Assembly: GCA_051894195.1 (NCBI GenBank) | Contig: JBJFIB010000135.1 | Coordinates: 1 to 42,135, forward strand | DNA: 42,135 nucleotides | Direction: 5' to 3' | Origin: Acutalibacteraceae bacterium | GTDB lineage: Bacteria; Bacillota; Clostridia; Oscillospirales; Acutalibacteraceae | Shown: positions 1 through 41,605 of the stretch, piece by piece | How positions within the stretch are numbered: the stretch's first letter is position 1 | How the letters are laid out: the number at the start of each line of letters is the position of its first letter | Made by a program: the position numbers and the translations under genes | Notes under the pieces: model-generated | What the model saw: the letters and a program-made list of their open reading frames with translations, nothing else | What the model was told of the DNA's origin: nothing | The model's database searches: none

Positions 1-101
1 TATATATTTGGTACGAATCCGAAATCTATCATTTTGAAAAGTACAACCTTAAACTTAATGATGATTTTATAGAGTATGTGCTGAACAAGGTGAATAAATG
101 A
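1..101 (+). CDS. 3' fragment of a tandem paralog (hypothetical small protein), cut by the window edge
   Basis: The frame ending at TGA 99-101 reads YIWYESEIYHFEKYNLKLNDDFIEYVLNKVNK. This matches the C-termini of the 148..456 and 503..811 products. Confidence 0.6.
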   Translation, partial: YIWYESEIYHFEKYNLKLNDDFIEYVLNKVNK

Positions 102-147
102 ATTTTATACTTGTTATGTTTATTTGAGAAATCAGGAGGTTATGTAA

Positions 148-456
148 ATGCGGTTTATAAGAGATAAATATGTTAATAAACTGACAAAAGAAGAATTAAC
201 TGATAATTTTTCAAGCGAGCCTATAAGTGAAAAAGCAAAAATATTAGAATATATGAAGTCTTTTTCAGAACCTTATGCATTTACTACTCAACCGGTTATT
301 GATGTATTCACAAATGAGGAGCTTGAATATACAGATAATGAATTTTTTGATGGGGTATATTTTTGGTACAAGTCTGAAATATATCATTTTGAAAAGTACA
401 ACCTTAAACTTAATGATGATTTTATAGAGTATGTGCTGAACAAGGTGAATAAATGA
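148..456 (+). CDS. Hypothetical 102-aa protein, tandem paralog copy 2
   Basis: ATG start, with AGGAGG 8 nt upstream. The reading frame is intact and has a conserved paralog. I recognise no family. Confidence 0.7.
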   Translation: MRFIRDKYVNKLTKEELTDNFSSEPISEKAKILEYMKSFSEPYAFTTQPVIDVFTNEELEYTDNEFFDGVYFWYKSEIYHFEKYNLKLNDDFIEYVLNKVNK

Positions 457-502
457 ATTTTATACTTGTTATGTTTATTTGAGAAATCAGGGGGTTTTGT
501 AA

Positions 503-811
503 GTGCAGTTTATAAGAGATAAATATGTTAATGAACTGACAAAAGAAGAATTAGCTGATAATTTTTTAAGCGAGCCTATAAGTGAAAAAGCAAAAATATT
601 AGAATATATGAAGTCTATTTCAGAACCTTACGCATGTACTACTCAACCGGTTGTTGATGTATTCACAAATGAGGAACTTGAATTTGTAGATAATGGTTTT
701 TCTGACGGTGTATATCTTTGGTACAAGTCTGAAATATATCATTTTGAAAAGTACAACCTTAAACTTAATGATGATTTTATAGAGTATGTGCTGAACAAGG
801 TGAATAAATGA
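503..811 (+). CDS. Hypothetical 102-aa protein, tandem paralog copy 3
   Basis: GTG start after AGGGGG. It differs from copy 2 at 12 of 102 residues, all within residues 2-72. The C-terminal 30 residues are identical. Confidence 0.7.
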   Translation: MQFIRDKYVNELTKEELADNFLSEPISEKAKILEYMKSISEPYACTTQPVVDVFTNEELEFVDNGFSDGVYLWYKSEIYHFEKYNLKLNDDFIEYVLNKVNK

Positions 812-859
812 ATGTTTTGAATGTGGTATTTGTCAATTTTTTTGTGTAAGGGGGATTAT

Positions 860-1181: not shown

Positions 1182-1257
1182 TGGAGCTGGAAATGGGACT
1201 TGAACCCACGACTTCCTCATTACGAGTGAGGTACTCTACCAACTGAGTTATTCCAGC
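1182..1257 (-). tRNA. tRNA-Thr, anticodon CGT, with encoded CCA
   Basis: The reverse complement is GCTGGAATAACTCAGTTGGTAGAGTACCTCACTCGTAATGAGGAAGTCGTGGGTTCAAGTCCCATTTCCAGCTCCA. It folds as a 76-nt cloverleaf: acceptor GCTGGAA/TTCCAGC, anticodon stem CCTCA/TGAGG with loop CTCGTAA, and T-arm GTGGG-TTCAAGT-CCCAT. Confidence 0.92.
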
Positions 1258-1467: not shown

Positions 1468-2457
1468 TTGAAAAAAGAATATCTTTATGAAGCACCCGAA
1501 GATGTCCGTGACTTTTTGAATTATATGCAGAATGTAAAGGGAAAATCTCAGCTTACAGTAGATGAATATTATGTTGATTTAAGAATATTTTTCAGATTTA
1601 TGAAGAAATTCAAGGGTTGTGTCAGTGAAGATACGCCTGATGAAAAAATCAGAATTGACGATATTACAACGGATTTTATCCGACAGATAACATTTTCGGA
1701 TATAAACTATTATATGAATTATTGTATGAGTGAGCGTCACAATAAAGCAAGTGCCCGTGCAAGAAAAACATCAAGCCTCAGCACTTTTTTTAAGTATCTT
1801 ACGAATAAAGTCAATAAGCTCGAAAAAAATCCGACAGAACAGCTTGACGCACCAAAGAAAACAAAATCACTGCCGAAATATCTCACATTAGAACAAAGTA
1901 TAGAACTTCTCAACGCCGTTGAGGGTGAGTATAAAGAGCGTGATTACTGCATACTGACATTGTTTCTTAACTGTGGAATGAGACTTTCGGAACTTGTCGG
2001 AATAAATATCGGAGATGTCCGTTCAGACCGTTCTTTGCGTCTTTTGGGAAAAGGCGACAAGGAGAGAGTGGTTTATCTGAATGATGCATGTATAGATGCG
2101 ATTGAGGCTTACAAAAAAGTCCGTCCGGTTGACGGTGTAGTTGACAAAAATGCATTGTTTCTCAGTCGGCTGAAAAAACGCATAAGTCCGAAAACCGTTC
2201 AGGCTATGGTGTATAAATACCTTGAAAAAATCGGACTTGATTCGCAGGGCTATTCGGTTCATAAACTGCGTCATACCGCCGCAACGCTTATGTATCAGCA
2301 GGGACATGTTGACATTCGTGTGCTGAAAGAAATTCTCGGACACGAAAATCTCGGTACAACTGAGATTTATACACACCTTTCAAGTCAGCAGATAAAGCAG
2401 GCAATAAATTCAAATCCACTTTCGGATGTAAAACCGAAGAAAAAGAAAAACGGTTGA
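1468..2457 (+). CDS. Tyrosine-type site-specific recombinase, XerC/XerD-like
   Basis: TTG start after AAAGGAGG. It has an N-terminal SAM-like core-binding region, and catalytic signatures GMRLSEL (Arg box), HKLRHTAAT (H-x-x-R) and LGHENLGTTEIYTH (catalytic Tyr). Confidence 0.9.
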   Translation: MKKEYLYEAPEDVRDFLNYMQNVKGKSQLTVDEYYVDLRIFFRFMKKFKGCVSEDTPDEKIRIDDITTDFIRQITFSDINYYMNYCMSERHNKASARARKTSSLSTFFKYLTNKVNKLEKNPTEQLDAPKKTKSLPKYLTLEQSIELLNAVEGEYKERDYCILTLFLNCGMRLSELVGINIGDVRSDRSLRLLGKGDKERVVYLNDACIDAIEAYKKVRPVDGVVDKNALFLSRLKKRISPKTVQAMVYKYLEKIGLDSQGYSVHKLRHTAATLMYQQGHVDIRVLKEILGHENLGTTEIYTHLSSQQIKQAINSNPLSDVKPKKKKNG

Positions 2458-5630: not shown

Positions 5631-6350
5631 ATGGTTACATTTGAAGCTATGATACAGGACAAAAAGGTAAGAATGTTTGCTGACCTTCCACTCAAAAACG
5701 CAGCAGGAGCAATAATAAAAACACTCGTTCAGATAAGCCAGAAAACAGATATTTTTAACGGAAAGTTTGTTATGTGCTTTGGCTGGGCTTATTTCTTCCT
5801 CGATAAAAGACAGGACGAAAACGGCGAAGAATACTGGGTTATACAGACAACTGACTATAAGAAAAATCCTATGAATGACAAAACTGACAATACTACGGTT
5901 TCACTTCTCGTGCAGAATATGCAGATTGAAACCGTACAGACCGCAAGGGTACAGCCGCTTGCAACAACATTCAAGGATACCGTTCTTGTACTCAAAGAGG
6001 CAATAGGTGCAAAAGATGTTTATATGAACAGAACAGAACCTGAAAAAGAGGGAGATTCAGGCTGGTATTTCGGTTTGCTTGACGACCCGAATGAAGAAAA
6101 TCACAGTGCTGATGAATACACTGTGATTGCGTCCTATGAATTCCTTAAATTCCGCTCGGAAGCACTCAGAGTGCTTGAAATGCCTGTCGGAACTCTTGCG
6201 GTATTCCACGAAAATACACTTACTGCCCTTGTTGACAAGGACGACAATCCGCTGAAATTTACTACACCGCCGAAAGACTCGGAGAAAAATGTATATAATC
6301 CTGAGGAAGCTGTTTCCGAAAATAAAGACGAAAATCCACAAGATAAATAA
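5631..6350 (+). CDS. Hypothetical 239-aa protein whose C-terminal half carries a DSGW motif (Imm33/DUF2185-like, tentative)
   Basis: ATG 5631 follows AAAGGA. The motif context is EKEGDSGWYFGLLDDPNEEN...LEMPVGTLAVF. The tail is acidic. The family assignment is from memory only. Confidence 0.6.
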   Translation: MVTFEAMIQDKKVRMFADLPLKNAAGAIIKTLVQISQKTDIFNGKFVMCFGWAYFFLDKRQDENGEEYWVIQTTDYKKNPMNDKTDNTTVSLLVQNMQIETVQTARVQPLATTFKDTVLVLKEAIGAKDVYMNRTEPEKEGDSGWYFGLLDDPNEENHSADEYTVIASYEFLKFRSEALRVLEMPVGTLAVFHENTLTALVDKDDNPLKFTTPPKDSEKNVYNPEEAVSENKDENPQDK

Positions 6351-7502
<1,152 letters not shown>

Positions 7503-8060: not shown

Positions 8061-8090
8061 GAGGAGTATCAGTTTTGGTACTCCTTTTTT
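8061..8090 (+). terminator. Rho-independent terminator after yajC
   Basis: Stem GGAGTA/TACTCC with a 10-nt loop, followed by TTTTTT. Confidence 0.75.
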
Positions 8091-8133
8091 GTTAGTTAGG
8101 AGTGAGGAGTTAGGAGTTGTGCTGACGGTCAGC
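8091..8133 (+). repeat. Heptad-repeat intergenic element, GGA class, GTNAGGA variant
   Basis: GTTAGGA GTGAGGA GTTAGGA GTTGTGC, followed by the near-palindrome TGCTGACGGTCAGC. Confidence 0.8.
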
Positions 8134-8724: not shown

Positions 8725-8871
8725 ATGAAAGAAACAAAGCACATCAAAACTCTTAACAATGCTAATCTCAAAGAGTCAGCAGTAAAGGGCGGTTGCGGTG
8801 AATGTCAGGCTTCCTGTCAGTCAGCTTGCAAGACTTCCTGCACAGTTGCTAACCAGAAGTGCGAGAAGTAA
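8725..8871 (+). CDS. scfA: Six-cysteine peptide SCIFF (RiPP precursor); absent from the ORF track
   Basis: My translation is MKETKHIKTLNNANLKESAVKGGCGECQASCQSACKTSCTVANQKCEK. This carries the canonical SCIFF C-terminal pattern GGCGECQ.SCQSACKTSCTV.NQ.C. AAGGGTGA lies upstream and the maturase gene downstream. Confidence 0.93.
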   Translation: MKETKHIKTLNNANLKESAVKGGCGECQASCQSACKTSCTVANQKCEK

Positions 8872-8896
8872 TTCTGCACTTTAACATCGTTTTTGT

Positions 8897-8930
8897 AAAG
8901 GGCGGATAATGTTTCCGCCCTTTATGTTTT
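8897..8930 (+). terminator. Hairpin with T-tract between scfA and scfB (terminator or attenuator)
   Basis: AAAGGGCGGA / TCCGCCCTTT with a 7-nt loop, followed by ATGTTTT. Confidence 0.6.
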
Positions 8931-8979: not shown

Positions 8980-9007
8980 CGCATTATGCATTACGAATTA
9001 CGCATTT
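8980..9007 (-). repeat. Heptad-repeat element, TAATKCG class, inverted orientation
   Basis: The forward strand reads CGCATTA TGCATTA CGAATTA CGCATTT. This is the reverse complement of four TAATGCG/TAATTCG-type units. Confidence 0.75.
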
Positions 9008-9030: not shown

Positions 9031-10443
9031 ATGATACACAAATACAAACTCGGCGGATATAATATATGCCTTGATGTACACAGCGGTGCGGTTCATATAC
9101 TTGACGATATTGCCTATGATATTCTTGACTACTGCGACGAAAATATGAGCGAACAGCCACCTGAAAAAATGTACACTGAGCTTTCATCAAAATATGATAA
9201 AGACGATTTGACAGAAACATATCAGGCACTGTACTCACTTTATCAGAACGGTCAGCTCTTTTCACCAGATGATTATGAACAGTTTGCCGATATGATGACA
9301 AAAGCACCGATAAAATCAATGTGCATAAACATCTCTCACGACTGTAACCTCAGATGTGAATACTGCTTTGCCGCAAAGGGCGATTTCGGACAGGGACGCT
9401 GTCTTATGTCGTTTGAAACAGCAAAGAAAGCTATTGACTTTATTATTGCAAATTCAGGTACAAGACATAATCTTGAAGTTGACTTTTTCGGCGGCGAACC
9501 GCTGATGAATTTCGATGTTGTCAAAAAGACCGTTGAATACGCAAGAAGTATCGAAAAACAGCACAACAAAAACTTCCGCTTTACAATTACAACAAACGGA
9601 CTTTTGCTTGATGATGATAAAATCGACTACATCAACAAAGAAATGTCAAATGTTGTTTTGTCGCTTGACGGACGAAAAGAAGTTAATGACAGACTGCGTG
9701 TTACACCTAACGGCAAGGGTTCATACGATACTATTGTACCGAAATATCAGAAACTCGTTGCGTCAAGAGGCGACAAGGATTATTATGTCAGAGGTACATT
9801 CACAAAGCATAATCTTGATTTTACAAATGATGTTATGCAAATGAAAAATCTCGGATTTGAACAGCTTTCAATCGAGCCTGTTGTGTCAGACCCTCAGCTT
9901 GATTATTCAATCAAAAATGAGGATTTGCCGGCAGTATTCAATGAATATGAACACCTTGCTGATACAATAATTCAGTCAAGACGCAAGGGCGACTATTTCA
10001 ATTTCTTCCACTTTATGATTGACCTCAACCAAGGTCCCTGTGCAATCAAGCGTCTGCGTGGATGTGGCTGCGGAAACGAATATGTTGCTGTTACACCACA
10101 GGGCGACATCTATCCGTGTCATCAGTTTGTCGGACACGAGGAGTACAAAATGGGCAACCTCAACGACGGCACATTCAACAATGATATGAAACTGATGTTC
10201 GCCAAGGCAAATGTATATTCAAAGGAAAACTGCAAGAATTGTTGGGCAAAATTCTATTGCAGCGGCGGCTGTAACGCAAACAATTTCCAGTATGAAGGCG
10301 ATATTCTTAAATCCCACAAGACTTCCTGCGAGCTTGAAAAGAAACGCCTTGAATGTGCAATTATGATTAAAGCGGCTCTTGCGGATATGCCGTCGGAAAA
10401 CTCACAGTGCGACGGGGACGACTGTTTCGGCGTTTGCAGATAA
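9031..10443 (+). CDS. scfB: SCIFF radical-SAM maturase with a SPASM domain
   Basis: Radical-SAM motif CNLRCEYC, a Cys-rich C-terminal SPASM region (CGCGNEY..., CKNCWAKFYCSGGC), and adjacency to scfA. Confidence 0.93.
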   Translation: MIHKYKLGGYNICLDVHSGAVHILDDIAYDILDYCDENMSEQPPEKMYTELSSKYDKDDLTETYQALYSLYQNGQLFSPDDYEQFADMMTKAPIKSMCINISHDCNLRCEYCFAAKGDFGQGRCLMSFETAKKAIDFIIANSGTRHNLEVDFFGGEPLMNFDVVKKTVEYARSIEKQHNKNFRFTITTNGLLLDDDKIDYINKEMSNVVLSLDGRKEVNDRLRVTPNGKGSYDTIVPKYQKLVASRGDKDYYVRGTFTKHNLDFTNDVMQMKNLGFEQLSIEPVVSDPQLDYSIKNEDLPAVFNEYEHLADTIIQSRRKGDYFNFFHFMIDLNQGPCAIKRLRGCGCGNEYVAVTPQGDIYPCHQFVGHEEYKMGNLNDGTFNNDMKLMFAKANVYSKENCKNCWAKFYCSGGCNANNFQYEGDILKSHKTSCELEKKRLECAIMIKAALADMPSENSQCDGDDCFGVCR

Positions 10444-10489: not shown

Positions 10490-10682
10490 ATGTAGGTACA
10501 ACAAAGTAAAGCACACGCTTTCACCTGTAAAGTATCGTCTGTTACGGGTCAATAGTTATTAACAATACTTGTTTTGGTATTATTATGCTGTTGATGCACG
10601 GACGGTCGGCGACTGTACCGTGCTTTTCTTTATTGAATAATTATCCAGTAATAATGGGATTGAAACTTGGAGGTGCTTTAAC
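10490..10682 (+). promoter_or_regulatory. Structured 5' leader of infC, consistent with L20-leader type attenuation
   Basis: A ~190-nt untranslated leader contains an intrinsic terminator upstream of the infC RBS. This position matches the known L20-responsive leader of Firmicutes. I did not verify the L20-binding fold itself. Confidence 0.45.
10596..10634 (+). terminator. Leader (attenuator) terminator upstream of infC
   Basis: GCACGGACGGTC-GGC-GACTGTACCGTGC, followed by TTTTCTTTATT. Confidence 0.7.
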
Positions 10683-13346: not shown

Positions 13347-14576
13347 TTGGATAAAAATATATTCTGGATATGGCTGCAATGCTGTCTTGGCGTTGACAAT
13401 CCCCGTATTCACAGAATTTTTGAAGTTTTTGATGACGCTTATCATATATATAACGCCGACGAAAACGAACTCAGAATCAGCGGAGTTTTTTTGCATAAGG
13501 AACTTTTAAAGCTGAATGACAAAAATCTTGATACTGCAAAGAAAATATATAATAAATGTTTTTTGCACGGATATAATATATTTTCTTTACAGGATGAAAA
13601 TTATCCCGACAAGCTCAGAAAAACACCGACACCGCCTGTTGTTATATATGTAAAGGGCAGAATTCCCGATGGGAATCGTCTTTTTGCGGCTATTGTCGGC
13701 ACAAGACATTCAACAATAACAGGCAGGAAAACAGCCTTTTCGCTTGCCTATGACCTTGCAAAAAGCGGTGCGGTTATCGTCAGCGGCGGTGCTATGGGTA
13801 TTGATGCACAGGCTCATCTCGGTGCAATTCAGGCAGGCGGAAAAACCGTGTGTGTGCTTGGCTGTGGAATAAATTACGATTATTTGCCGTCAATGGAAAA
13901 TATCCGCAGCGAAATTTCAAAACACGGTGCATTGATTTCGGAATATCCGCCGGATTATCCGCCGACTAAATTTACATTTCCGAAGCGTAACAGAATTATT
14001 TCGGGAATTTCCGACTGTACGGTTGTCGTTGAGGCGGGAAAAACAAGCGGTGCATTGATTACCGCAAAAGAGGCTGCAAAACAAAACAGAACAATTTTTG
14101 CCGTTCCGGGAAGTATCGAAAGTCAGAGTGCAGTCGGTTCAAATCTTCTTATACAGGAGGGTGCAAAAATACTTCTCAGTGCCGAAAACATTATCGACTG
14201 GTATAATTCAGAAAATCAAAAAAATAATGACGGAAAAATTACAAAAACTCAGATAAACCCCGACTCAATAGCAAACATACGAACCAAATCAGAAAAAAAT
14301 AAAATATTGCCAACAGATGAAAAAACATTGGAAACACACTCTTTATCGCATAAACAGACCGTTAAAGCCGAAAAAAAAGAAAATAAAATTCCCGACGGAC
14401 TGTTGACAGAAAACGCTGTTGCGGTGTATCATACAATTTCAGATACCCCTATTCATGTAAACGACATCAAACTTGCAACAGGCTTAAAGATAAACGATGT
14501 AATTTCAGCACTCTCAGAACTTGAACTGAACGACCTTATTCTTGTTCACTCAGGCAGAAGATACACGAAAAAATAG
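13347..14576 (+). CDS. dprA: DNA-processing protein DprA (Smf)
   Basis: TTG start after GGGGAGAG. The Rossmann core reads IVGTRHST..., SGGAMGIDAQAH, RNRIISG. There is a long Lys/Asn-rich linker and a C-terminal winged-helix-like tail. Confidence 0.9.
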   Translation: MDKNIFWIWLQCCLGVDNPRIHRIFEVFDDAYHIYNADENELRISGVFLHKELLKLNDKNLDTAKKIYNKCFLHGYNIFSLQDENYPDKLRKTPTPPVVIYVKGRIPDGNRLFAAIVGTRHSTITGRKTAFSLAYDLAKSGAVIVSGGAMGIDAQAHLGAIQAGGKTVCVLGCGINYDYLPSMENIRSEISKHGALISEYPPDYPPTKFTFPKRNRIISGISDCTVVVEAGKTSGALITAKEAAKQNRTIFAVPGSIESQSAVGSNLLIQEGAKILLSAENIIDWYNSENQKNNDGKITKTQINPDSIANIRTKSEKNKILPTDEKTLETHSLSHKQTVKAEKKENKIPDGLLTENAVAVYHTISDTPIHVNDIKLATGLKINDVISALSELELNDLILVHSGRRYTKK

Positions 14577-14620
14577 AGTGGAGTGTGGAGAGTGGAGTGT
14601 GGAGTTGTACGAACCGTCAG
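14576..14620 (+). repeat. Heptad-repeat intergenic element, GGA class
   Basis: GAGTGGA GTGTGGA GAGTGGA GTGTGGA GTTGTAC GAACCGTCAG. The first G is the last base of the dprA TAG stop. Confidence 0.9.
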
Positions 14621-16800: not shown

Positions 16801-16829
16801 TTGTAAAAACCGCTAATATATGGTAAAAT
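16801..16829 (+). promoter_or_regulatory. Putative promoter for trmFO
   Basis: TTGTAA, 17 nt, TGgTAAAAT. It would place the heptad element and the conserved hairpin inside a ~190-nt leader. Confidence 0.4.
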
Positions 16830-16830
16830 A

Positions 16831-16866
16831 TAATGCGTAATTCGTAATGCGTAATGCGTAATTATT
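16831..16866 (+). repeat. Heptad-repeat intergenic element, TAATKCG class
   Basis: TAATGCG TAATTCG TAATGCG TAATGCG TAATTAT. The tail is loosely similar to the one after 27598 (…GAC..AAGTTTG.TG.G.TGA). Confidence 0.9.
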
Positions 16867-16981
16867 ATTGCGGACATTAAGTTTGTGCGTTGAATTTTGG
16901 TTTGATGCAAAATTCAGTTGTTGCGTGTAAAAATACAATACACTGATTTTGCGGAAAATGACTTAACGGTAAAAATAACTT

Positions 16982-17012
16982 TGAACGCAATTCGGGTGCG
17001 GCAGCTTGCCGC
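16982..17012 (+). repeat. Conserved 31-nt hairpin module, copy 1
   Basis: TGAACGCAATTCGGGTGCGGCAGCTTGCCGC is identical to 36375..36405. The core hairpin is GCGGCA-GCT-TGCCGC. Confidence 0.9.
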
Positions 17013-17028
17013 TGGAGGTGGAGTTGTT

Positions 17029-20052: not shown

Positions 20053-21062
20053 AACATTCAAATGTAGCACTTTTTGTACCTCATAACGGCTGTCCTCATC
20101 AGTGCAGTTTCTGCAATCAGCGAACAATCACAGGAAAAAACGAACAGCCGACAGCACAAGATGTAAAAAATGCAATAGAAACAGCCGAGAACAGTCTTGG
20201 TGAAAATACAAAAAATGCCGAAATAGCTTTTTTTGGCGGCAGCTTTACGGCAATAGACAGAAATTATATGATTGAACTTCTTGAAGCGGCTGCACCGTCA
20301 GTGCATAGCGGAAGATTTTACGGCATAAGAATTTCAACCCGACCTGACGCAATCGACAGCGAAATCCTCGATATTCTTCAAAAATACGGCGTTACCGCTG
20401 TTGAACTCGGGGCTCAGAGTATGAGTGACGAGGTGCTTTATGCAAACCACAGAGGACATACTTCGGCTGATATTGTAAATGCGTCAACGATGATAAAAGA
20501 GCGTGGTATGTCGCTCGGCTTGCAGATGATGACGGGACTTTATAAAAGTGATGACGAAAAAGACACGGAAACAGCGGAAAAAATTGCCGCCTTAAAGCCT
20601 GATACAGTACGCATTTATCCTACAATAGTCCTTAAAGGAACGGAACTTTACGACCTCTATGTCAGCGGAAAATATCAGCCGCAAACGCTTGACGAGGGTG
20701 TAAGATTGTGTTCAAAGCTGCTTAAATACTTTGAGGACAGAAACATAAATGTTATCCGTCTTGGACTTCACGACAGCGACAGTCTGCGTGAAAATATGGC
20801 GGCAGGTGCATATCACCCTGCGTTCCGTGAACTCTGCGAAAGCGAGATTATGTACAACAACGCTCTTGAAGAACTCGAAAAAATGAACATAAAATTCGGC
20901 GTTGTCGAATTTTTCATAAATCCGAAATCGGTTTCACGCTTTATCGGTCAGAAACGAAAAAATCTTGACCGCCTTTCAAAGCTGGGTATAACGGCGGTTG
21001 TGCGTCAGGACTCACGGCTCTCAAAATATCAGACCGTATGCCGATATGTACCGCAAATTTGA
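20049..21062 (+). CDS. Radical SAM protein (ELP3/coproporphyrinogen-oxidase-like superfamily), function unknown
   Basis: N-terminal CPHQCSFC is a CxxxCxxC motif, followed by GGSFT. The TTG start overlaps the rnc stop. Confidence 0.8.
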   Translation: MKHSNVALFVPHNGCPHQCSFCNQRTITGKNEQPTAQDVKNAIETAENSLGENTKNAEIAFFGGSFTAIDRNYMIELLEAAAPSVHSGRFYGIRISTRPDAIDSEILDILQKYGVTAVELGAQSMSDEVLYANHRGHTSADIVNASTMIKERGMSLGLQMMTGLYKSDDEKDTETAEKIAALKPDTVRIYPTIVLKGTELYDLYVSGKYQPQTLDEGVRLCSKLLKYFEDRNINVIRLGLHDSDSLRENMAAGAYHPAFRELCESEIMYNNALEELEKMNIKFGVVEFFINPKSVSRFIGQKRKNLDRLSKLGITAVVRQDSRLSKYQTVCRYVPQI

Positions 21063-21108
21063 GAGTGGAGTGTGGAGAGTGGAGTGTGGAGTTGTGCAAA
21101 AGGTCAGC
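21061..21108 (+). repeat. Heptad-repeat intergenic element, GGA class
   Basis: GAGTGGA GTGTGGA GAGTGGA GTGTGGA GTTGTGC AAAAGGTCAGC. It starts immediately after the TGA at 21060-21062. Its 33-nt core is identical to 14576..14608. Confidence 0.9.
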
Positions 21109-26412: not shown

Positions 26413-26934
26413 ATGAATGATACGAATAATAACAAGCGTCTGTTCATTTATGATGTAGATAAAAAGTATGAGGACATATTTTTAAAATTAAGTGATGATT
26501 TTCTGTTTCCGGCTTCACCGTCGGTAAAGGGTTGTATAGGCTGTTTTGGCTGCTGGATAAAAACACCCGGACAATGTGTGTTGAAAGACAGATGTAATAT
26601 TATTCAGAACTATATTTTAAAAAGCAGTGAGGTTGTTATTGTCAGTCCTGTATTATACGGCGGATATTCACCGGATATTAAATCCGTGCTTGACCGTTCT
26701 ATCGGATACATATTGCCGTATTTTCGGATTGTTGACGGCGAAATGCACCATCAGCTGAGGTATAAACATTCCTTTAAACTCAGCGTGTATTTTTACGGAA
26801 AATGCGGTGATGATGAAAAAAATATTGCTAAGCGTCTTGTAAAAGCAAATGCAATCAATCTTGGTGCAGAAAGTTATGAAGTTAAATTTTTTGATTCTGT
26901 GGATTCATTAGGAAAGGTAATCGGTGAAAAATGA
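26413..26934 (+). CDS. Flavodoxin-fold protein with a Cys cluster (Isf / FMN-reductase-like), lacking the N-terminal phosphate-binding loop
   Basis: CIGCFGCWIKTPGQCVLKD followed by VVIVSPVLYGGYSPDIKSVLDRS resembles iron-sulfur flavoproteins. No GSPR-type loop is present. Confidence 0.65.
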   Translation: MNDTNNNKRLFIYDVDKKYEDIFLKLSDDFLFPASPSVKGCIGCFGCWIKTPGQCVLKDRCNIIQNYILKSSEVVIVSPVLYGGYSPDIKSVLDRSIGYILPYFRIVDGEMHHQLRYKHSFKLSVYFYGKCGDDEKNIAKRLVKANAINLGAESYEVKFFDSVDSLGKVIGEK

Positions 26935-27566
26935 AAATTCTTATGCTGTGCGGAAGTCCACGACCACAAAAAAGTACATCACACTATTTACTCAATGTAC
27001 TGAAAGAAAGATTGTGTAATGAAAATGAAATTCTGATGTGCAATATTGCGGGAAAAAATCCGGATATTGAACGGACTGTTCTGGAAAATGCGGAAGATGT
27101 TGATGTAATTGTTGCTGCATTTCCGCTGTATGTTGACAGTATTCCGGGAAGTTTTCTGAGAGTGCTTGAAAATATTGAAAAACAGATTAAGGAGCATAAA
27201 GTCGATTGCAAGTTGTATGTTATTGTCAATAACGGATTTTATGATGCAAAACAAAACAGTATTGCTATTGATATTATGTGGAACTGGTGTGAAAAATGCG
27301 GTATGACAAAGGGCAGAGCAATAGCTGTTGGTGCAGGAGAAATGGTACAGGGCATACCGCTCGGAGCAGGACCGATGAAAAATCTTGGAAACGCTATAAA
27401 TCAGTTTACTGATGATATACAACACAGAAATACCGGCGAAACAATTTTTGTTGAACCGAATTTCCCGAGATTTTTATATAAAACAGCGGCACATATGGGT
27501 TGGCACAGAAATGCAAAAAAGAACGGTCTTAAAATTTCAGATATTAAGAAAACAGATATAAAATAA
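26931..27566 (+). CDS. Flavodoxin-like NAD(P)H-dependent oxidoreductase family protein
   Basis: MKILMLCGSPRPQKSTSHYLL is an FMN phosphate-loop type sequence. There is a 4-nt ATGA overlap with the upstream gene. Confidence 0.65.
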   Translation: MKILMLCGSPRPQKSTSHYLLNVLKERLCNENEILMCNIAGKNPDIERTVLENAEDVDVIVAAFPLYVDSIPGSFLRVLENIEKQIKEHKVDCKLYVIVNNGFYDAKQNSIAIDIMWNWCEKCGMTKGRAIAVGAGEMVQGIPLGAGPMKNLGNAINQFTDDIQHRNTGETIFVEPNFPRFLYKTAAHMGWHRNAKKNGLKISDIKKTDIK

Positions 27567-27600
27567 TTCGTAATGCGTAATTCGTAATGCGTAATTATTG
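27564..27600 (+). repeat. Heptad-repeat intergenic element, TAATKCG class
   Basis: TAATTCG TAATGCG TAATTCG TAATGCG TAATTAT. The first TAA is the stop codon of the 26931..27566 gene. Confidence 0.9.
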
Positions 27601-27655
27601 TGAGTGACGCAAGTTTGATGTGCTGAGAGAATTTATTTATGAAAGGAAACAATAA

Positions 27656-27961
27656 ATGCTTACAAGTAAACAAAGGGCGTTTTTACGCTCTCTTGCAAAT
27701 GATATTGATACAATAGTTATGGTCGGAAAGGGCGGCATAAGTCAGCAGATTGTCAAACAGGCTGACGACGCCCTTACCGCAAGGGAACTCATCAAGGGTA
27801 AAGTCCTTGAAACAGCGGGAGTTGACGCACGGGAAATTGCCGAACAGATTGCCGCTCAGACACAGTGCGATGTTGTACAGGTAATAGGCTCAAAATTCGT
27901 GCTTTTCAGAAGAAATCCGAAAGCACCGAAAATTGAACTGCCCAAAGCCAGAAGAAAATAA
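27656..27961 (+). CDS. yhbY: YhbY-family (CRM-domain) RNA-binding ribosome assembly protein
   Basis: LTSKQRAFLRSLANDIDTIVMVGKGGIS...ELIKGKV, about 100 aa, upstream of nadD as in the B. subtilis yqeI arrangement. Confidence 0.88.
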   Translation: MLTSKQRAFLRSLANDIDTIVMVGKGGISQQIVKQADDALTARELIKGKVLETAGVDAREIAEQIAAQTQCDVVQVIGSKFVLFRRNPKAPKIELPKARRK

Positions 27962-27966
27962 TAAAT

Positions 27967-27994
27967 TTTCAACTTTCCATTTTCCATTTTCAAT
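27967..27994 (+). repeat. Heptad-repeat intergenic element, TTTCMAY class
   Basis: TTTCAAC TTTCCAT TTTCCAT TTTCAAT (then TTACTCG), beginning 5 nt after the yhbY stop. Confidence 0.8.
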
Positions 27995-28016
27995 TTACTC
28001 GACTGGGGTGTTTTGT

Positions 28017-28613
28017 GTGAGAACAGCTATGTTCGGCGGCAGTTTTAATCCGATACATATCGGTCACATTCAGCTTGCACAGGCTTTTGTTAAAAAACTG
28101 AGCCTTGACAGAGTGCTGATTATTCCGACTTATATTCCGCCGCATAAACAGTGTGATAATTCGGTGTCGCCGCAGGACAGACTGCAAATGTGTCGTCTTG
28201 CAGTAAAAGACCTGCCGTTTGCACAGGTCAGCGACATTGAAATACAAAGAAAAGGTGCAAGCTATACTTATATTACACTGCAAGAACTTGCACAGCAGTA
28301 TAAAAATGACGAACTGTTTCTGATAACAGGTGCTGATATGTTTATGTCAATTCAGGACTGGAAACACCCCGAGATTATTTTTTCTCTTGCGACGGTGTGC
28401 GGTGTGCCGAGAAATGACGATGATATAAACCGTCTTGAAAAACAGTCGGAATATCTCAGAACTCTCGGAGCAAAAACAGAAATCCTTGACGCAGGTGTTA
28501 TCACGGTTTCATCAACTGAAATCCGCAGAAAAATACACAACGGCGAAAGCACAAACGGACTTCTTACAAATGAAGTAAGAGAATATATAGATAAAAATAA
28601 GCTGTATATCTGA
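28017..28613 (+). CDS. nadD: Nicotinate-nucleotide adenylyltransferase
   Basis: GTG 28017 follows GGGGTG with 6 nt spacing. FGGSFNPIHIGH is the HxGH motif, and SSTEIR is also present. The ORF-track start at 27933 reads through the heptad element. An alternative start is ATG 28029. Confidence 0.9.
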   Translation: MRTAMFGGSFNPIHIGHIQLAQAFVKKLSLDRVLIIPTYIPPHKQCDNSVSPQDRLQMCRLAVKDLPFAQVSDIEIQRKGASYTYITLQELAQQYKNDELFLITGADMFMSIQDWKHPEIIFSLATVCGVPRNDDDINRLEKQSEYLRTLGAKTEILDAGVITVSSTEIRRKIHNGESTNGLLTNEVREYIDKNKLYI

Positions 28614-28628
28614 AAGAATAATTTATGC

Positions 28629-28657
28629 TTGAAAGACAAATTATATGTTGGTATAAT
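28629..28657 (+). promoter_or_regulatory. Putative extended -10 promoter for yqeK-rsfS-leuS
   Basis: TTGAAA, 17 nt, TGgTATAAT. Confidence 0.45.
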
Positions 28658-28674
28658 CTATTTGTATAATTTTT

Positions 28675-29268
28675 ATGGAGTTGATAAAAGTGACAGTTAA
28701 GGATTATGACAAAATCATCAAGGAAAGACTTTCATCAAAGCGTTATGAACATTCAAAAAATGTTGCAAAAGAGGCTGTGCGTCTTGCAAAAAAATATGGT
28801 GCTGATGTTGAAAAGGCGGAAATTGCCGGAATTCTGCATGATATTACAAAAGAGGCACAGCAGGAAGAACAGTTCGATTTAATCAGAAAAGCCGGAATTG
28901 AACTCACGGAATTTGAAAGCTCAACTCCAAAGCTATGGCACGCTATTTCGGGCAGTGCTTATTTAAAGGTTATTCTCGGAATTGAAGATGAGGATATTAT
29001 AAATGCAATAAGATTCCATACAACAGGAAGATGCGGAATGTCACTTCTTGAAAAGGTGATTTTTATTGCGGATTTTACATCTGACGACCGTGACTATGAC
29101 GGCGTTGAAAAAATGCGTAAAGCCGCTGACAAAAGTCTTGAAGATGCTATGATTGAGGGAATGTCGTTTACAATATGCGACCTTTCCGAAAGAAAACTTC
29201 CGATTGCACCCGATACATTCCGGGGATATAACGAAGTGGTTTTTTCAAAATCAAAGAAAAAGAAATAA
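28675..29268 (+). CDS. yqeK: HD-domain bis(5'-nucleosyl)-tetraphosphatase YqeK
   Basis: RYEHSKNVAKEA...ILHDITKE is an HD motif. Synteny is nadD-yqeK-rsfS. GTG 28690, 9 nt after GGAG, may be the true start. Confidence 0.87.
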   Translation: MELIKVTVKDYDKIIKERLSSKRYEHSKNVAKEAVRLAKKYGADVEKAEIAGILHDITKEAQQEEQFDLIRKAGIELTEFESSTPKLWHAISGSAYLKVILGIEDEDIINAIRFHTTGRCGMSLLEKVIFIADFTSDDRDYDGVEKMRKAADKSLEDAMIEGMSFTICDLSERKLPIAPDTFRGYNEVVFSKSKKKK

Positions 29269-32610: not shown

Positions 32611-32647
32611 CTACAACTCCACTCTCCACTCTCCACACTCCACACTG
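32611..32647 (-). repeat. Heptad-repeat element, GGA class, inverted orientation
   Basis: The forward strand reads ACAAC TCCACTC TCCACTC TCCACAC TCCACAC. This is the reverse complement of GTGTGGA GTGTGGA GAGTGGA GAGTGGA GTTGT. Confidence 0.9.
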
Positions 32648-32667
32648 AAAAAAGGGGGTTAATATAT

Positions 32668-36374: not shown

Positions 36375-36419
36375 TGAACGCAATTCGGGTGCGGCAGCTT
36401 GCCGCCGAATTACGCATTA
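36375..36419 (+). repeat. Conserved 31-nt hairpin module, copy 2, fused to two inverted TAATKCG heptads
   Basis: 36375..36405 is identical to 16982..17012. Here the flank CGAATT extends the helix by pairing with AATTCG, and is followed by CGAATTA CGCATTA (36406..36419). Confidence 0.9.
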
Positions 36420-39582: not shown

Positions 39583-39642
39583 AATCACCTGTCCCTTGCA
39601 TATAAATTTATATACTTTGAGCAAGGACGGGTGATTTTTTTG
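39583..39642 (+). terminator. Strong Rho-independent terminator after ytfJ
   Basis: AATCACCTGTCCCTTGC / GCAAGGACGGGTGATT form about 16 bp with one bulge and a 21-nt loop, followed by TTTTTTT. Confidence 0.85.
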
Positions 39643-40770
39643 TATTTCCGAAAAATAACGGCATTTATGCTTTCAATTTTTACGGTGTTTCTTTGTGCTT
39701 TTTCGTCTGGAAATAAGACAACCGCTGTTTCAACCTCAGCGTCAGCGGCAATACTCTATTGTGCGGACAGCGGTGAAATTCTCTACGAAAAAAATCCGCA
39801 CGAAAAACGAGCAATAGCAAGCATAACAAAAATTATGACAGCAATTATTGCACTGGAATATGCCGCAGTCAACAACAAAGAAGTGAAATTTACATCTGAA
39901 ATGTCTGCAATAGGTTCGAGTATGTATCTCAAAGAGGGAGAAATACTCACACTTACCGAGCTTACAAAGGGAATGATGATGGTGTCGGGAAATGACGCCG
40001 CAAATGCTGTTGCAATTTCGGTTGCGGGCAGTACAGAAAAATTTGCGGAACTTATGAACCAAAAGGCACAGCAAATCGGAATGAAAGACACACACTTTGT
40101 CACGCCGTCGGGACTTGACGACGAAAATCACTATTCGACGGCGTATGATATGGCACTTTTGTGTTCGTATGCGATGGATAACGAGCAGTTCAGAAATATC
40201 GTTTCTCAAAAAAGCATAAAGGTTTCATACATTTATCCCGAGAACAAAACTCAGATATGCACAAATCACAACAGACTTCTGTCAATTTATGATGACTGCG
40301 TAGGAATTAAAACAGGTTTTACCGAAAAAGCAGGTAGAACGCTGACCTCAGCCGCCGAGCGTGACGGAATAAGGCTTATTGCCGTGACACTGAATGACGG
40401 AAACGACTGGAATGACCATTCGGCATTGTATGACTACGGCTTTTCGCTTGTCGAGCGTGTTCAGCTTTCAACAAAATATAAAAGCATTGATGTTGCACTT
40501 GTCGGTGCTGAACAGAACAGCGTTACTGTTGTGCCTTATTCACAGGCAGAGGCAACCGTTATGAAAAACGATATAAGCAAAATAGAAGAAAAAATCTATC
40601 TTCCACGATTTGTTTATGCACCTGTAAAAAAGGGCAGTACAGTCGGAAAAATTGTTTATACCTTAAACGGAAAAGTGATTTCCGAAACAAAACTTATTGC
40701 ATCGTCTGATGTACAGGCACAGACAGCGGAAAAACACTGGTACGATTTTTTGAAACTAAGATTATTTTAA
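39631..40770 (+). CDS. D-alanyl-D-alanine carboxypeptidase (S11, DacB/DacF-like)
   Basis: SITK is the SxxK motif, SGND the SxN motif and KTGFT the KTG motif. There is an N-terminal signal or anchor sequence. The start is uncertain because GTG 39631 lies inside the terminator 3' arm; TTG 39640 or ATG 39667 are possible. Confidence 0.88.
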   Translation: MIFLYFRKITAFMLSIFTVFLCAFSSGNKTTAVSTSASAAILYCADSGEILYEKNPHEKRAIASITKIMTAIIALEYAAVNNKEVKFTSEMSAIGSSMYLKEGEILTLTELTKGMMMVSGNDAANAVAISVAGSTEKFAELMNQKAQQIGMKDTHFVTPSGLDDENHYSTAYDMALLCSYAMDNEQFRNIVSQKSIKVSYIYPENKTQICTNHNRLLSIYDDCVGIKTGFTEKAGRTLTSAAERDGIRLIAVTLNDGNDWNDHSALYDYGFSLVERVQLSTKYKSIDVALVGAEQNSVTVVPYSQAEATVMKNDISKIEEKIYLPRFVYAPVKKGSTVGKIVYTLNGKVISETKLIASSDVQAQTAEKHWYDFLKLRLF

Positions 40771-40790
40771 TTATGCATTATGAATTATAA
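40769..40790 (-). repeat. Degenerate, inverted TAATKCG-class heptads
   Basis: The forward strand reads TGCATTA TGAATTA directly after the dacB-like stop. There are only two decayed units. Confidence 0.35.
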
Positions 40791-40804: not shown

Positions 40805-41605
40805 ATGGCAAATGAGGAAAAAATAAGAGTACAGAAAATTATAGCTGACGCAGGAATTGCGTCAAGAAGAAAAGCTGAGGAACTTATCACAAGAGGGGCA
40901 GTAACAGTAAACGGCAGAAAGGCAAAACTCGGCGATAAGGCTGACCCATACAAAGACCGCATTACCGTTGCAGGTCGTGAAATAAAACTCAGCAAAAACG
41001 CAAAAAAATATTATATTATGCTCCACAAGCCGAGAGGATTTATCACTACAATGAATGACGAGGGAGGCAGAAAATGCGTTGCTGAGCTTGTTGATGATGT
41101 TCCGGCAAGACTGTTCCCTGTCGGCAGACTTGACAAGGAGTCGGAGGGCTTGCTGTTTATGACAAATGACGGCGATTTTGCGAATATGATAAGTCACCCG
41201 TCAACGCATTTTGCAAAGACCTATCGTGTAACCGTAAGACCGAGAATAAGCGAAGAACAGCTTACTTCACTTACAACAGGTGTGCTGGTTGACGGGCGTA
41301 TGTCGTCGCCTGCGGCAATTCGTGTAATCAAAAATGAACAGGACAGAACAGTCCTCGAAATTATACTCGAAGAAGGTCGCAACAGACAGATAAGAAAAAT
41401 GTGCGAGGCGGTTAATCTTGAAGTTGCAAGGCTGAAAAGGGTTGCAATAGGTCCTGTGAAACTCGGAATGTTACAGCCTGGAAAATGGCGTGAGCTTACA
41501 CCCGACGAAATGCGTAAAATCTCAAATCTGCACAAAAAACTTGTCGCACAGAATCAGCACGAGCAAGAGATGAAAAAACACGACAGAAAATCCGGCAACA
41601 GATGA
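40805..41605 (+). CDS. rluB: 23S rRNA pseudouridine synthase, RluB/RsuA family
   Basis: S4 domain RVQKIIADAGIASRRKAEELI, a catalytic PVGRLDKESEGLL, RQIRKM, and a basic C-tail. Confidence 0.92.
   Translation: MANEEKIRVQKIIADAGIASRRKAEELITRGAVTVNGRKAKLGDKADPYKDRITVAGREIKLSKNAKKYYIMLHKPRGFITTMNDEGGRKCVAELVDDVPARLFPVGRLDKESEGLLFMTNDGDFANMISHPSTHFAKTYRVTVRPRISEEQLTSLTTGVLVDGRMSSPAAIRVIKNEQDRTVLEIILEEGRNRQIRKMCEAVNLEVARLKRVAIGPVKLGMLQPGKWRELTPDEMRKISNLHKKLVAQNQHEQEMKKHDRKSGNR

Follow-up and report, generated by a model that had tools for sequence, protein, structure and literature searches.

What makes, moves and keeps short tandem arrays of seven-nucleotide units in the gaps between core genes is the question raised by a 42,135-nt stretch of an Acutalibacteraceae bacterium (assembly GCA_051894195.1, contig JBJFIB010000135.1; hereafter, the window), in which an array of TAATKCG units lies between topA and trmFO. 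An earlier note on this DNA had described five TAATKCG sites and a parallel class of GGA heptads, all of which could be confirmed in the sequence, and had taken the likeness of the two designs as a sign of a common generating mechanism or a common reader. Comparison with close relatives shows that the unit number, the G/T order and even the heptad class of an array at a given site change very quickly. The arrays are heptad repeats of the kind described as short tandemly repeated repetitive (STRR) sequences and heptameric long simple sequence repeats (LSSR), and form the variable head of a dispersed intergenic family; they probably propagate themselves, changing by slippage and by copying between arrays, and would be carried in transcripts as unstructured spacer.

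The window is core chromosome from a Clostridia host with 40% GC, with all genes on the + strand in the order SCIFF peptide and maturase, infC-rpmI-rplT, dprA, topA, trmFO, plsX, rnc, a radical SAM gene, smc, ftsY, yhbY and leuS. Coding sequence takes up 89.5% of its length and all 11 heptad arrays (TAATKCG, GGAG-type and one ATTTTCM) are intergenic, their contact with coding sequence being limited to stop codons. Each array is built on a constant 4-mer core (TAAT or GGAG) that recurs four to five times, with three bases between cores, one or two of which are variable. Tandem Repeats Finder and a period scan place the arrays at period 7 with 3.6–4.7 copies (a range that holds throughout the lineage) and 80–92% matches, and the TAAT and GGAG arrays are exact at period 14. 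The two-unit pattern TAATKCGTAATKCG, allowing at most one mismatch, has 10 matches in the window against 0.06 expected, a count attained in 0 of 100 shuffles. That the arrays arose as chance matches or through faulty assembly has next to no probability. Although short-read assemblies are indeed broken by these repeats, no shuffle reached the observed count, a Logan contig that begins within the array at 27564 is 100% identical to positions 27574–28757, and in close relatives, assembled independently in NCBI, ENA and Logan, arrays stand in the same gaps. These further copies outside the contig refute the artefact that the earlier note had kept in view.

Exact-protein look-up returned nothing for TopA and only one short contig for YhbY, and syntenic contigs of relatives were reached through TopA homologues and an identical L20 protein. 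TopA identity to the window is 98% for contig L123, 97% for L122, 95% for L124 and 92% for L125 and L126, and L127 and several short contigs were also compared. In relatives whose TopA is at least 95% identical, the number of units in the same gaps ranges from one to four, the G/T order or the heptad class may be a different one, and some gaps are without an array. The topA/trmFO gap reads G,T,G,G in the window, G,G,T,G with another tail in L122 and T,T,G in L127, holds one unit in L123, and has no array in L124 and L125. The dprA/topA gap holds GGAGWGT units in the window, L123, L127 and L131 and TAATKCG units in L122 and L130, and in L124 a tail stands there without an array and in L125 the gap is 17 nt long and empty. 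At this gap L122 has the sequence of the window plus a 32-nt array (TAATGCG TAATTCG TAATGCG TAATGCG TAAT), which follows the TA of the stop codon, lies between two TA dinucleotides and is succeeded by a GGAGWGT remnant and a GGAGTKA array. In the gap between the radical SAM gene and smc, the GGAGTGT/GGAGAGT units of the window correspond to GGAGTTA/GGAATTA units of equal total length in L123, with a 3' flank that is 98% identical; three decayed units are present here in L127 and a TAATKCA array with a different tail in L122, and neither L124 nor L125 has an array. The SCIFF/maturase gap of L127 contains an inverted TAATTCA/CAATTCA array in place of the window's array at 8980–9007, and upstream of yhbY L122 has the array type and tail of the window, but its array begins at the stop of another upstream gene. 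As the G/T order differs between strains at one site, the two-state alternation is not a fixed code. Variation in both length and sequence between relatives at the same gap, as known for intergenic heptanucleotide repeats of the STRR and heptameric LSSR kind, is thus present here, and the resulting allelic series in strains at least 95% identical (empty, tail only, one to four units, other class), together with close relatives that have no arrays at all, makes the generator tractable both experimentally and comparatively.

Several other differences were seen in and near these gaps. A methylase and Eco47II-like restriction pair is inserted 3' of rplT in L123 (1203–2979), in gaps of the array-holding kind, and in L124 the topA/trmFO gap contains two additional genes (5940–6646). 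L122 (at ~15842) lacks the window genes at 26413–27566, and the end of this deletion falls exactly on the TAA that opens the array. Integron-like cassette sites were considered and rejected, the other L122 deletion junction (26372 in the window) being without an array. The SCIFF/maturase gap of L127 also has a GC-rich insert of ~120 nt (~7320–7440) that is absent from the window and is probably another small repeat element.

The heptad classes of the lineage (TAATKCG, TAATKCA, GGAGWGT, GGAGTKA, TTAGTKG and ATTTTCM) have a common architecture of about four units each; the TTAGTGG/TTAGTTG form of this two-state design was found in the smc/ftsY gap of L124 (14357–14389, 4.7 copies). The TAAT and GGAG sequences had been taken as unrelated in the earlier note, which is not supported. 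A tail of ~25 nt, roughly TT.TGC(G)AAC.GTYAGTTTTG.TG, is related between the two classes, so that the loose similarity noted there between the tails at 16831 and 27564 is real and reaches the GGA class too, and in strains whose L20 proteins are identical the two classes take each other's place at orthologous sites. Sharing a related tail and replacing each other, the classes are not independent; the proposed common mechanism or reader has partial support, in the shared architecture. On gut Ruminococcus-type contigs, the tail ATTTTTGCTCCGCAAATTTGTTGCG is a homologue of the one that follows the 16831 array. A tail motif, GAACCGTYRGTT, was tried as a shared site and rejected, as with up to two mismatches it occurs in the window about as often as expected (9 matches; 8.98 expected). 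The loosely conserved tail is probably composed of decayed older heptads, such as single TCAGTTx units.

The 32-nt array inserted in L122 occurs in identical form at non-orthologous loci in several genera. Because of this recurrence, the L122 insertion, the shared tail, the replacement of one class by another and the abundance of arrays in a narrow clade, copying of arrays between loci appears likely from the sequences compared. Such copying is a form of mobility, and the earlier preference for a common mechanism "rather than descent from one mobile element" is not supported.

On many gut contigs a composite is found in which a gene's stop codon is at once the first TAA of the array, and the array is followed by ATTTTTGCTCCGCAAATTTGTTGCG and then by the hairpin GTAGGGGCGGATTCTATATCCGCCC. 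Five gut contigs and others have GGAATKC arrays directly 5' of their TAATKCG arrays, and on the same contigs hairpins of the GTAGGGGCGGATTCTATATCCGCCC type, resembling repetitive extragenic palindromes (REP), lie 40–60 nt 3' of the TAATKCG arrays. A REP-type hairpin as a constant partner of the arrays was rejected for the window, which has one such hairpin (GGCGGA...TCCGCC, 8894–8926). It is quite unlikely that array and tail, with a hairpin in some genomes, together form a miniature inverted-repeat transposable element (MITE) or a non-autonomous element of the REP or REPIN (paired REP) type, with a transposase encoded elsewhere and TA or TAA near gene ends as its target. A tail common to classes and loci, the recurrent gut composite with its REP-like GTAG-plus-hairpin module, presence and absence of sites between relatives, an insertion allele flanked by TA, a lineage-specific load and the breaking of assemblies at arrays would all fit such an element. 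However, terminal inverted repeats were not found, the L122 insertion is a bare 32-nt array without a tail, tails stand without arrays in L124 and arrays change over a constant tail, and the tail motif is at its expected frequency in the window. No transposase lies beside any copy, the sole recombinase open reading frame (ORF; 1468–2457) being far from the arrays. With respect to a MITE, the comparison of filled and empty sites is a single one whose TA...TA flank is only 2 nt in AT-rich DNA, and array and tail vary independently; with respect to REP and REPIN, the arrays are not palindromic.

The load of arrays is specific to this lineage. Against 11 arrays in the 42 kb of the window, there are 7 in 16 kb of L122, 6 in 20 kb of L127, 4–5 in 18 kb of L123, 2 in 16 kb of L124 and 0 in 16 kb of L125, and two further relatives have 0 in 22 kb each (L466, TopA 87%; L467, TopA 85%). 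In the 60 kb of syntenic region scanned together in L125, L466 and L467 (85–92% TopA identity) no array was found. It is in a narrow clade of uncultured Clostridia of the gut/rumen type that the arrays have multiplied.

Beyond this clade, pattern scans of genomes and metagenomes, whose counts are lower bounds, recovered (TAATKCG)x3 at at least 120 loci in species-representative genomes of many phyla, where a rough estimate gives ~2 by chance. Hosts among the matches listed include Nostocales, Bacteroidota, Chloroflexota, Acidobacteriota, Planctomycetota, Verrucomicrobiota, Treponema and gut/rumen Clostridia; in the same matches, the cyanobacterial arrays are pure TAATTCG and often long, and arrays of mixed G/T are the usual form in gut/rumen contigs and in some Chloroflexi. 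A count of exact tandem arrays with three or more copies in ~1 Mb of array-bearing loci gives 181 for period 7 and 0–14 for each other period from 4 to 12, and 71 of the 181 are made of 52 heptads other than TAATTCG. Viral contigs in IMG/VR have 74 loci with (TAATKCG)x3, 20 with (GGAGWGT)x3 and 107 with (TAACTGA)x3, compared to 2 and 6 for the composition-matched controls (TTATACG)x3 and (TCTAATG)x3, respectively, so that bacteria and phages have a preferred heptad vocabulary in common. Both heptad classes were also seen in eight IMG/VR contigs labelled GVMAG (giant virus metagenome-assembled genome), some of the arrays being long. A metagenome scan for TAATGCGTAATTCGTAATGCG gave at least 120 loci; among the matches listed, there are three full units in 48 arrays, four in 64, five in 6, six in 4 and seven or more in 7, and G,T,G,G is the commonest order of the four-unit arrays (30 of 64).

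The arrays are also placed in a regular manner relative to genes. In the window they occupy untranslated gaps between co-directional housekeeping genes, with the head of the array toward the nearest ORF in 9 of the 10 that can be oriented. Sense arrays begin on or beside the stop codon of the upstream gene, except for that at 16831, which lies 40 nt past topA, and the antisense arrays (8980, 32615, 36406 and 40769) end 10–25 nt before the following gene's ribosome-binding site or start. Given the putative promoter at 16801..16829, the 16831 array would form the 5' end of the trmFO leader. Of 106 arrays among the metagenomic matches listed, 61 coincide with the stop of a sense ORF (minimum 100 amino acids) or are no more than 33 nt away from it, and 12 have this position relative to an antisense ORF, compared to 5.8% for random positions, and the gene stops are mostly in register with a heptad TAA (offset 0 in 21, 7 in 9 and 14 in 4); the placement picture in the matches listed for the cross-phylum genome set is similar. 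TAATKCG supplies TAA in all three frames, with gene stop codons in register with it. A stop fence in all frames was nevertheless rejected as a general rationale, as GGAGWGT is free of stops and it is the stop-free strand of TAACTGA arrays that comes after genes. For TAACTGA, the strand found behind genes is the opposite one (47 of 118, compared to 2 of 118), and with this opposite bias the orientation rules are class-specific.

Placement also bears on the possibility that the arrays are contingency loci, in which changes in copy number switch neighbouring genes by phase variation. Near-identical strains do differ (one unit against four at topA/trmFO), and heptanucleotide repeats drive phase variation in Haemophilus. 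The arrays, though, are found past a -10 hexamer or past stop codons and not between promoter hexamers or within ORFs, their neighbours are core housekeeping genes (topA, trmFO, smc and yhbY) and their size range is narrow where a broad one would be looked for. By position and by neighbours they do not belong among phase-variable contingency loci, and this explanation is very improbable.

A structured RNA was rejected for the arrays: Rfam 15 gave no match to any array in the window or in ten related loci at the gathering score or at E ≤ 1, and the arrays fold no better than shuffles (z-scores, -0.64 to +0.89). Predicted duplexes between sense and antisense arrays reach -45 to -68 kcal/mol, and as all genes are co-directional, sense and antisense arrays would be transcribed from the same strand and could form such duplexes. 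HutP binds repeats of regularly spaced NAG triplets (NAG-N4), and by comparison with HutP- and TRAP-type sites the GGAG classes present GAG or UAG every 7 nt and the TAAT class has no such triplets. A further explanation is that the arrays are cis-regulatory RNA platforms, read by an oligomeric RNA-binding protein (one core per 7 nt, in the manner of HutP) or by complementary antisense arrays on other transcripts, and that they thereby govern how the flanking genes are translated or terminated or how stable their transcripts are. The narrow range of four to five cores, the constancy of the core beside variable spacer bases, the strict orientation and register to stop codons, the preferred heptads across phyla and phages, and the predicted duplexes between arrays that would here both be transcribed from the + strand are all in keeping with a reader. 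Protein readers have also been the subject of speculation in the literature (PMC4679880; bioRxiv 10.1101/2022.06.06.494920), including ribosomal protein S1, cold-shock proteins or CsrA as readers of TAACTGA repeats (PMC4679880). On the other hand, near-identical strains have gained or lost arrays, or exchanged one class for another, at one and the same gene, and relatives with 85–92% identity have none; there is no conserved regulon; a separate reader would be required for each of at least five or six unrelated cores; and the flanking genes are unrelated housekeeping genes. No candidate reader gene was found in the window, where the cognate gene of a HutP- or TRAP-type system was not itself searched for. 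This explanation is considered unlikely.

The explanation that is favoured, heptad repeats of the STRR/LSSR kind, would have turnover proceed through slipped-strand mispairing, and its steps, of 7 or 14 nt, could yield the two-state pattern with period 14. Arrays may be copied between dispersed sites by microhomology-primed template switching or by gene conversion, with the TAAT or GAG core, common to stop codons and ribosome-binding sites, serving as microhomology; microhomology at stop codons (TAAT, TAG-AG and TGA-G) could explain the flush junctions. Once founders are present in a lineage, arrays would be able to proliferate in it, and they would be transcribed inside mRNAs as unstructured spacer, any function (in spacing, translation termination and re-initiation, or RNA–RNA pairing) being modulatory and not essential.

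Several observations weigh against this explanation. The sharp limit on size, with three- and four-unit arrays far outnumbering five-unit arrays among the metagenomic matches listed (48 and 64 against 6), goes beyond pure slippage, slippage does not explain the strong rule of orientation at gene ends, some heptads are 10–50x commoner than matched controls (in viral loci, 107 for TAACTGA and 74 for TAATKCG against 2 and 6), and close relatives with the same replication machinery have no arrays. Taken together, the size limit, orientation, preferred heptads and absence from relatives point to selection, to a constraint on size and placement, or to a specific maker or reader. The mechanism of copying, for its part, is inferred from a single clean insertion allele with a flank of only 2 nt. 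A further, distinctly improbable reading is that the arrays punctuate gene boundaries by their geometry, with four to five 4-mer cores at 7-nt spacing and the head at the end of an ORF, and that they are made or selected, across phyla and phages, by a conserved cellular process tied to the end of translation or to the uncoupling of transcription and translation. Sense arrays past stop codons and antisense arrays ahead of start codons would then be complementary RNA modules acting in cis or trans, and the G/T order a pairing barcode that would connect the site at which one cistron terminates with the site at which another is initiated. From a practical standpoint, the arrays fragment short-read assemblies, and they supply or overlap stop codons and are therefore relevant to gene calling.

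The arrays of the window and the features around them are collected in Table 1. A 30-nt repeat, GAACGCAATTCGGGTGCGGCAGCTTGCCGC, which includes a small hairpin, is present in two identical copies that each abut a heptad array, and related copies occur in two intergenic regions of L124. Toward the start of the window, each copy of a long tandem repeat carries a 102-amino-acid ORF, and neither ORF has a Pfam match. The region with a tRNA gene adjoining a tyrosine recombinase may be the edge of an integrated element.

Table 1. Positions of heptad arrays and other features in the window (SD, Shine-Dalgarno).
Feature	Positions	Strand	Units, sequence or copies	Setting
TAATKCG array	16831-16865	+	TAATGCG TAATTCG TAATGCG TAATGCG TAATTAT (G,T,G,G and terminal unit)	topA/trmFO gap
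Promoter-like element	16801..16829	+	TTGTAA-17-TAAAAT with TG extension	ends 2 nt 5' of 16831 array; hexamers kept in L122, L123 and L127
Tail 3' of 16831 array	16866..16900	+	TATTGCGGACATTAAGTTTGTGCG...	related to tails of both classes
TAATKCG array	27564-27598	+	TAATTCG TAATGCG TAATTCG TAATGCG TAATTAT; exact period 14	upstream of yhbY; first TAA is stop codon of ORF 26931-27566
Inverted TAATKCG/TAATGCA array	8980-9007	-	AAATGCG TAATTCG TAATGCA TAATGCG (4 units, two degenerate)	23 nt 5' of SCIFF maturase ATG (9031)
Inverted 2-unit TAATKCG array	36406-36419	-	TAATGCG TAATTCG	~20 nt 5' of M50 peptidase gene ATG
Decayed inverted array	40769-40787	-	TAATTCA TAATGCA TAATT	17 nt 5' of ATG at 40805; palindromic end TAATTA includes TAA stop of ORF 39631-40770
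GGAGWGT array	14575-14606	+		degenerate first unit overlaps dprA TAG stop
GGAGWGT array	21061-21093	+		upstream of smc; overlaps TGA stop of radical SAM gene
Inverted GGAGWGT array	32615-32649	-		directly 5' of SD and start of HAD hydrolase gene
GGAGTGA/GGAGTTA array	8094-8118	+		3' of terminator-like hairpin 8061-8086; kept in L127
Short 2-unit GGAG array	17014-17026	+	GGAGGTGGAGTTG	SD region of trmFO; L123 counterpart expanded (GGAGAGT GGAGTGT GGAGTTG)
ATTTTCM-type array	27964-27996	+	4.7 copies, 84% matches	begins 2 nt past yhbY stop codon
30-nt repeat	16983-17012 and 36376-36405		2 identical copies	
355-bp tandem repeat	1-813		2.3 copies, 94% identity	ORFs 148-456 and 503-811, one per repeat copy
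tRNA gene	1185-1257	-		adjoins tyrosine recombinase
Tyrosine recombinase (phage integrase family) ORF	1468-2457	+		
SCIFF-type cysteine-rich peptide gene	8725-8871		MKETKH...CEK	followed by maturase
Radical SAM/SPASM maturase	9031-10443			inverted TAAT array between it and peptide gene
L20-leader-like RNA	10498-10635		41.3 bits, under Rfam gathering score 58.7	5' of infC-rpmI-rplT

Heptanucleotide repeats have reportedly been known in cyanobacteria since 1990, when Mazel et al. are said to have described STRR in Calothrix PCC 7601, and later in Xanthomonas, Beggiatoaceae and Bacteroidetes; to our knowledge, Firmicutes are not among the repeat-rich genomes of the LSSR survey discussed below. 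A literature search by exact array strings returned unrelated primer matches only. The window arrays resemble STRR and heptameric LSSR in their head-to-tail 7-nt units and in their dispersed copies biased to non-coding DNA. The STRR heptanucleotides of heterocystous cyanobacteria, as cited for Calothrix PCC 7601 (PMC4692102), are likewise several unrelated heptamers present as dispersed intergenic tandem arrays in one genome, and (TAATTCG)n and GGAGTTA arrays are abundant in Nostocales loci. Unlike the arrays described here, however, cyanobacterial arrays are mostly homogeneous and often much longer, with up to 12 or more units in the loci compared, whereas mixed G/T arrays of three to four units are characteristic of contigs from gut/rumen and from some Chloroflexi. 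Heptamers were also dominant among the LSSR surveyed by Mrazek et al. (2007), with polymerase slippage proposed as their source, as cited in PMC4679880 and PMC4692102. The excess of period 7 in that cited account is found here too, but the survey as cited there carries no limit of ~4 units, rule of orientation or class swapping.

Direct repeats of TAACTGA near gene starts in marine Beggiatoaceae, cyanobacteria and Bacteroidetes (MacGregor 2015; PMC4679880) are similar in having 2–6 copies, an intergenic position near gene boundaries and a patchy distribution across phyla (PMC4679880), as well as in their abundance in viral contigs (107 loci) and strict orientation to gene ends. They differ in the unit itself and, in Beggiatoaceae, in lying mainly a few nucleotides 5' of start codons (PMC4679880); viral genes are trailed by the complementary (TCAGTTA)n, and the all-frame stops of TAATKCG are not common to both. 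The mosaic intergenic elements of proteobacteria, REP, bacterial interspersed mosaic elements (BIME) and REPIN (PMC3116915), are comparable in being short, dispersed and modular, in lying past stop codons in both orientations and in their lineage-specific load, and gut relatives carry a GTAG-plus-hairpin module 3' of the array. The window arrays, though, are direct repeats and not palindromes, and no REP-associated transposase (RAYT) was seen in a scan that included no RAYT search. With regard to function, TTTTGAA and GAC(C/T)AAT arrays in Nostoc are reported in a preprint to have regulatory effects (bioRxiv 10.1101/2022.06.06.494920).

The system that comes closest is that of the heptameric intergenic repeats GGGAATC of Xanthomonas and GGGGA(C/T)T of Nostoc PCC 7120 (Rehm et al. 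2015; PMC4692102). These repeats prefer four units, conserve positions 1–4 and 6 with a two-state variable position, lie between aligned ORFs either in sense at the stop codon or in antisense just before an ORF, occur as convergent pairs, are mostly transcribed and vary in length and sequence among close relatives (PMC4692102). The window arrays follow these published rules in unit number (about four), positions, placement, convergent pairs and variation, with the variants TAAT[G/T]C[G/A] keeping positions 1–4 and 6. The view in the earlier note that the design is not tied to one sequence is borne out to this extent, by several classes, by the dominance of period 7 and by the same rules published for Xanthomonas and Nostoc heptamers (PMC4692102). 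The differences are that the repeats of Xanthomonas and Nostoc are rich in G-tracts and reach up to 26 units, whereas those of the window have at most about five and belong to a low-GC Clostridia host. The preference for four units has been attributed to the formation of G-quadruplexes (PMC4692102), for which four G-tracts are lacking in the window classes, TAATKCG having no GG run and GGAGWGT only GG doublets, so that the arrays fall outside the G-quadruplex subclass. Since TAATKCG cannot form a G-quadruplex, this explanation of the four-unit rule cannot be general, and the arrays are a natural counter-example to it. What is new relative to the known systems is a low-GC, gut-type Clostridia host in which A/T-rich and GGAG-type units obey the rules of G-rich repeats.

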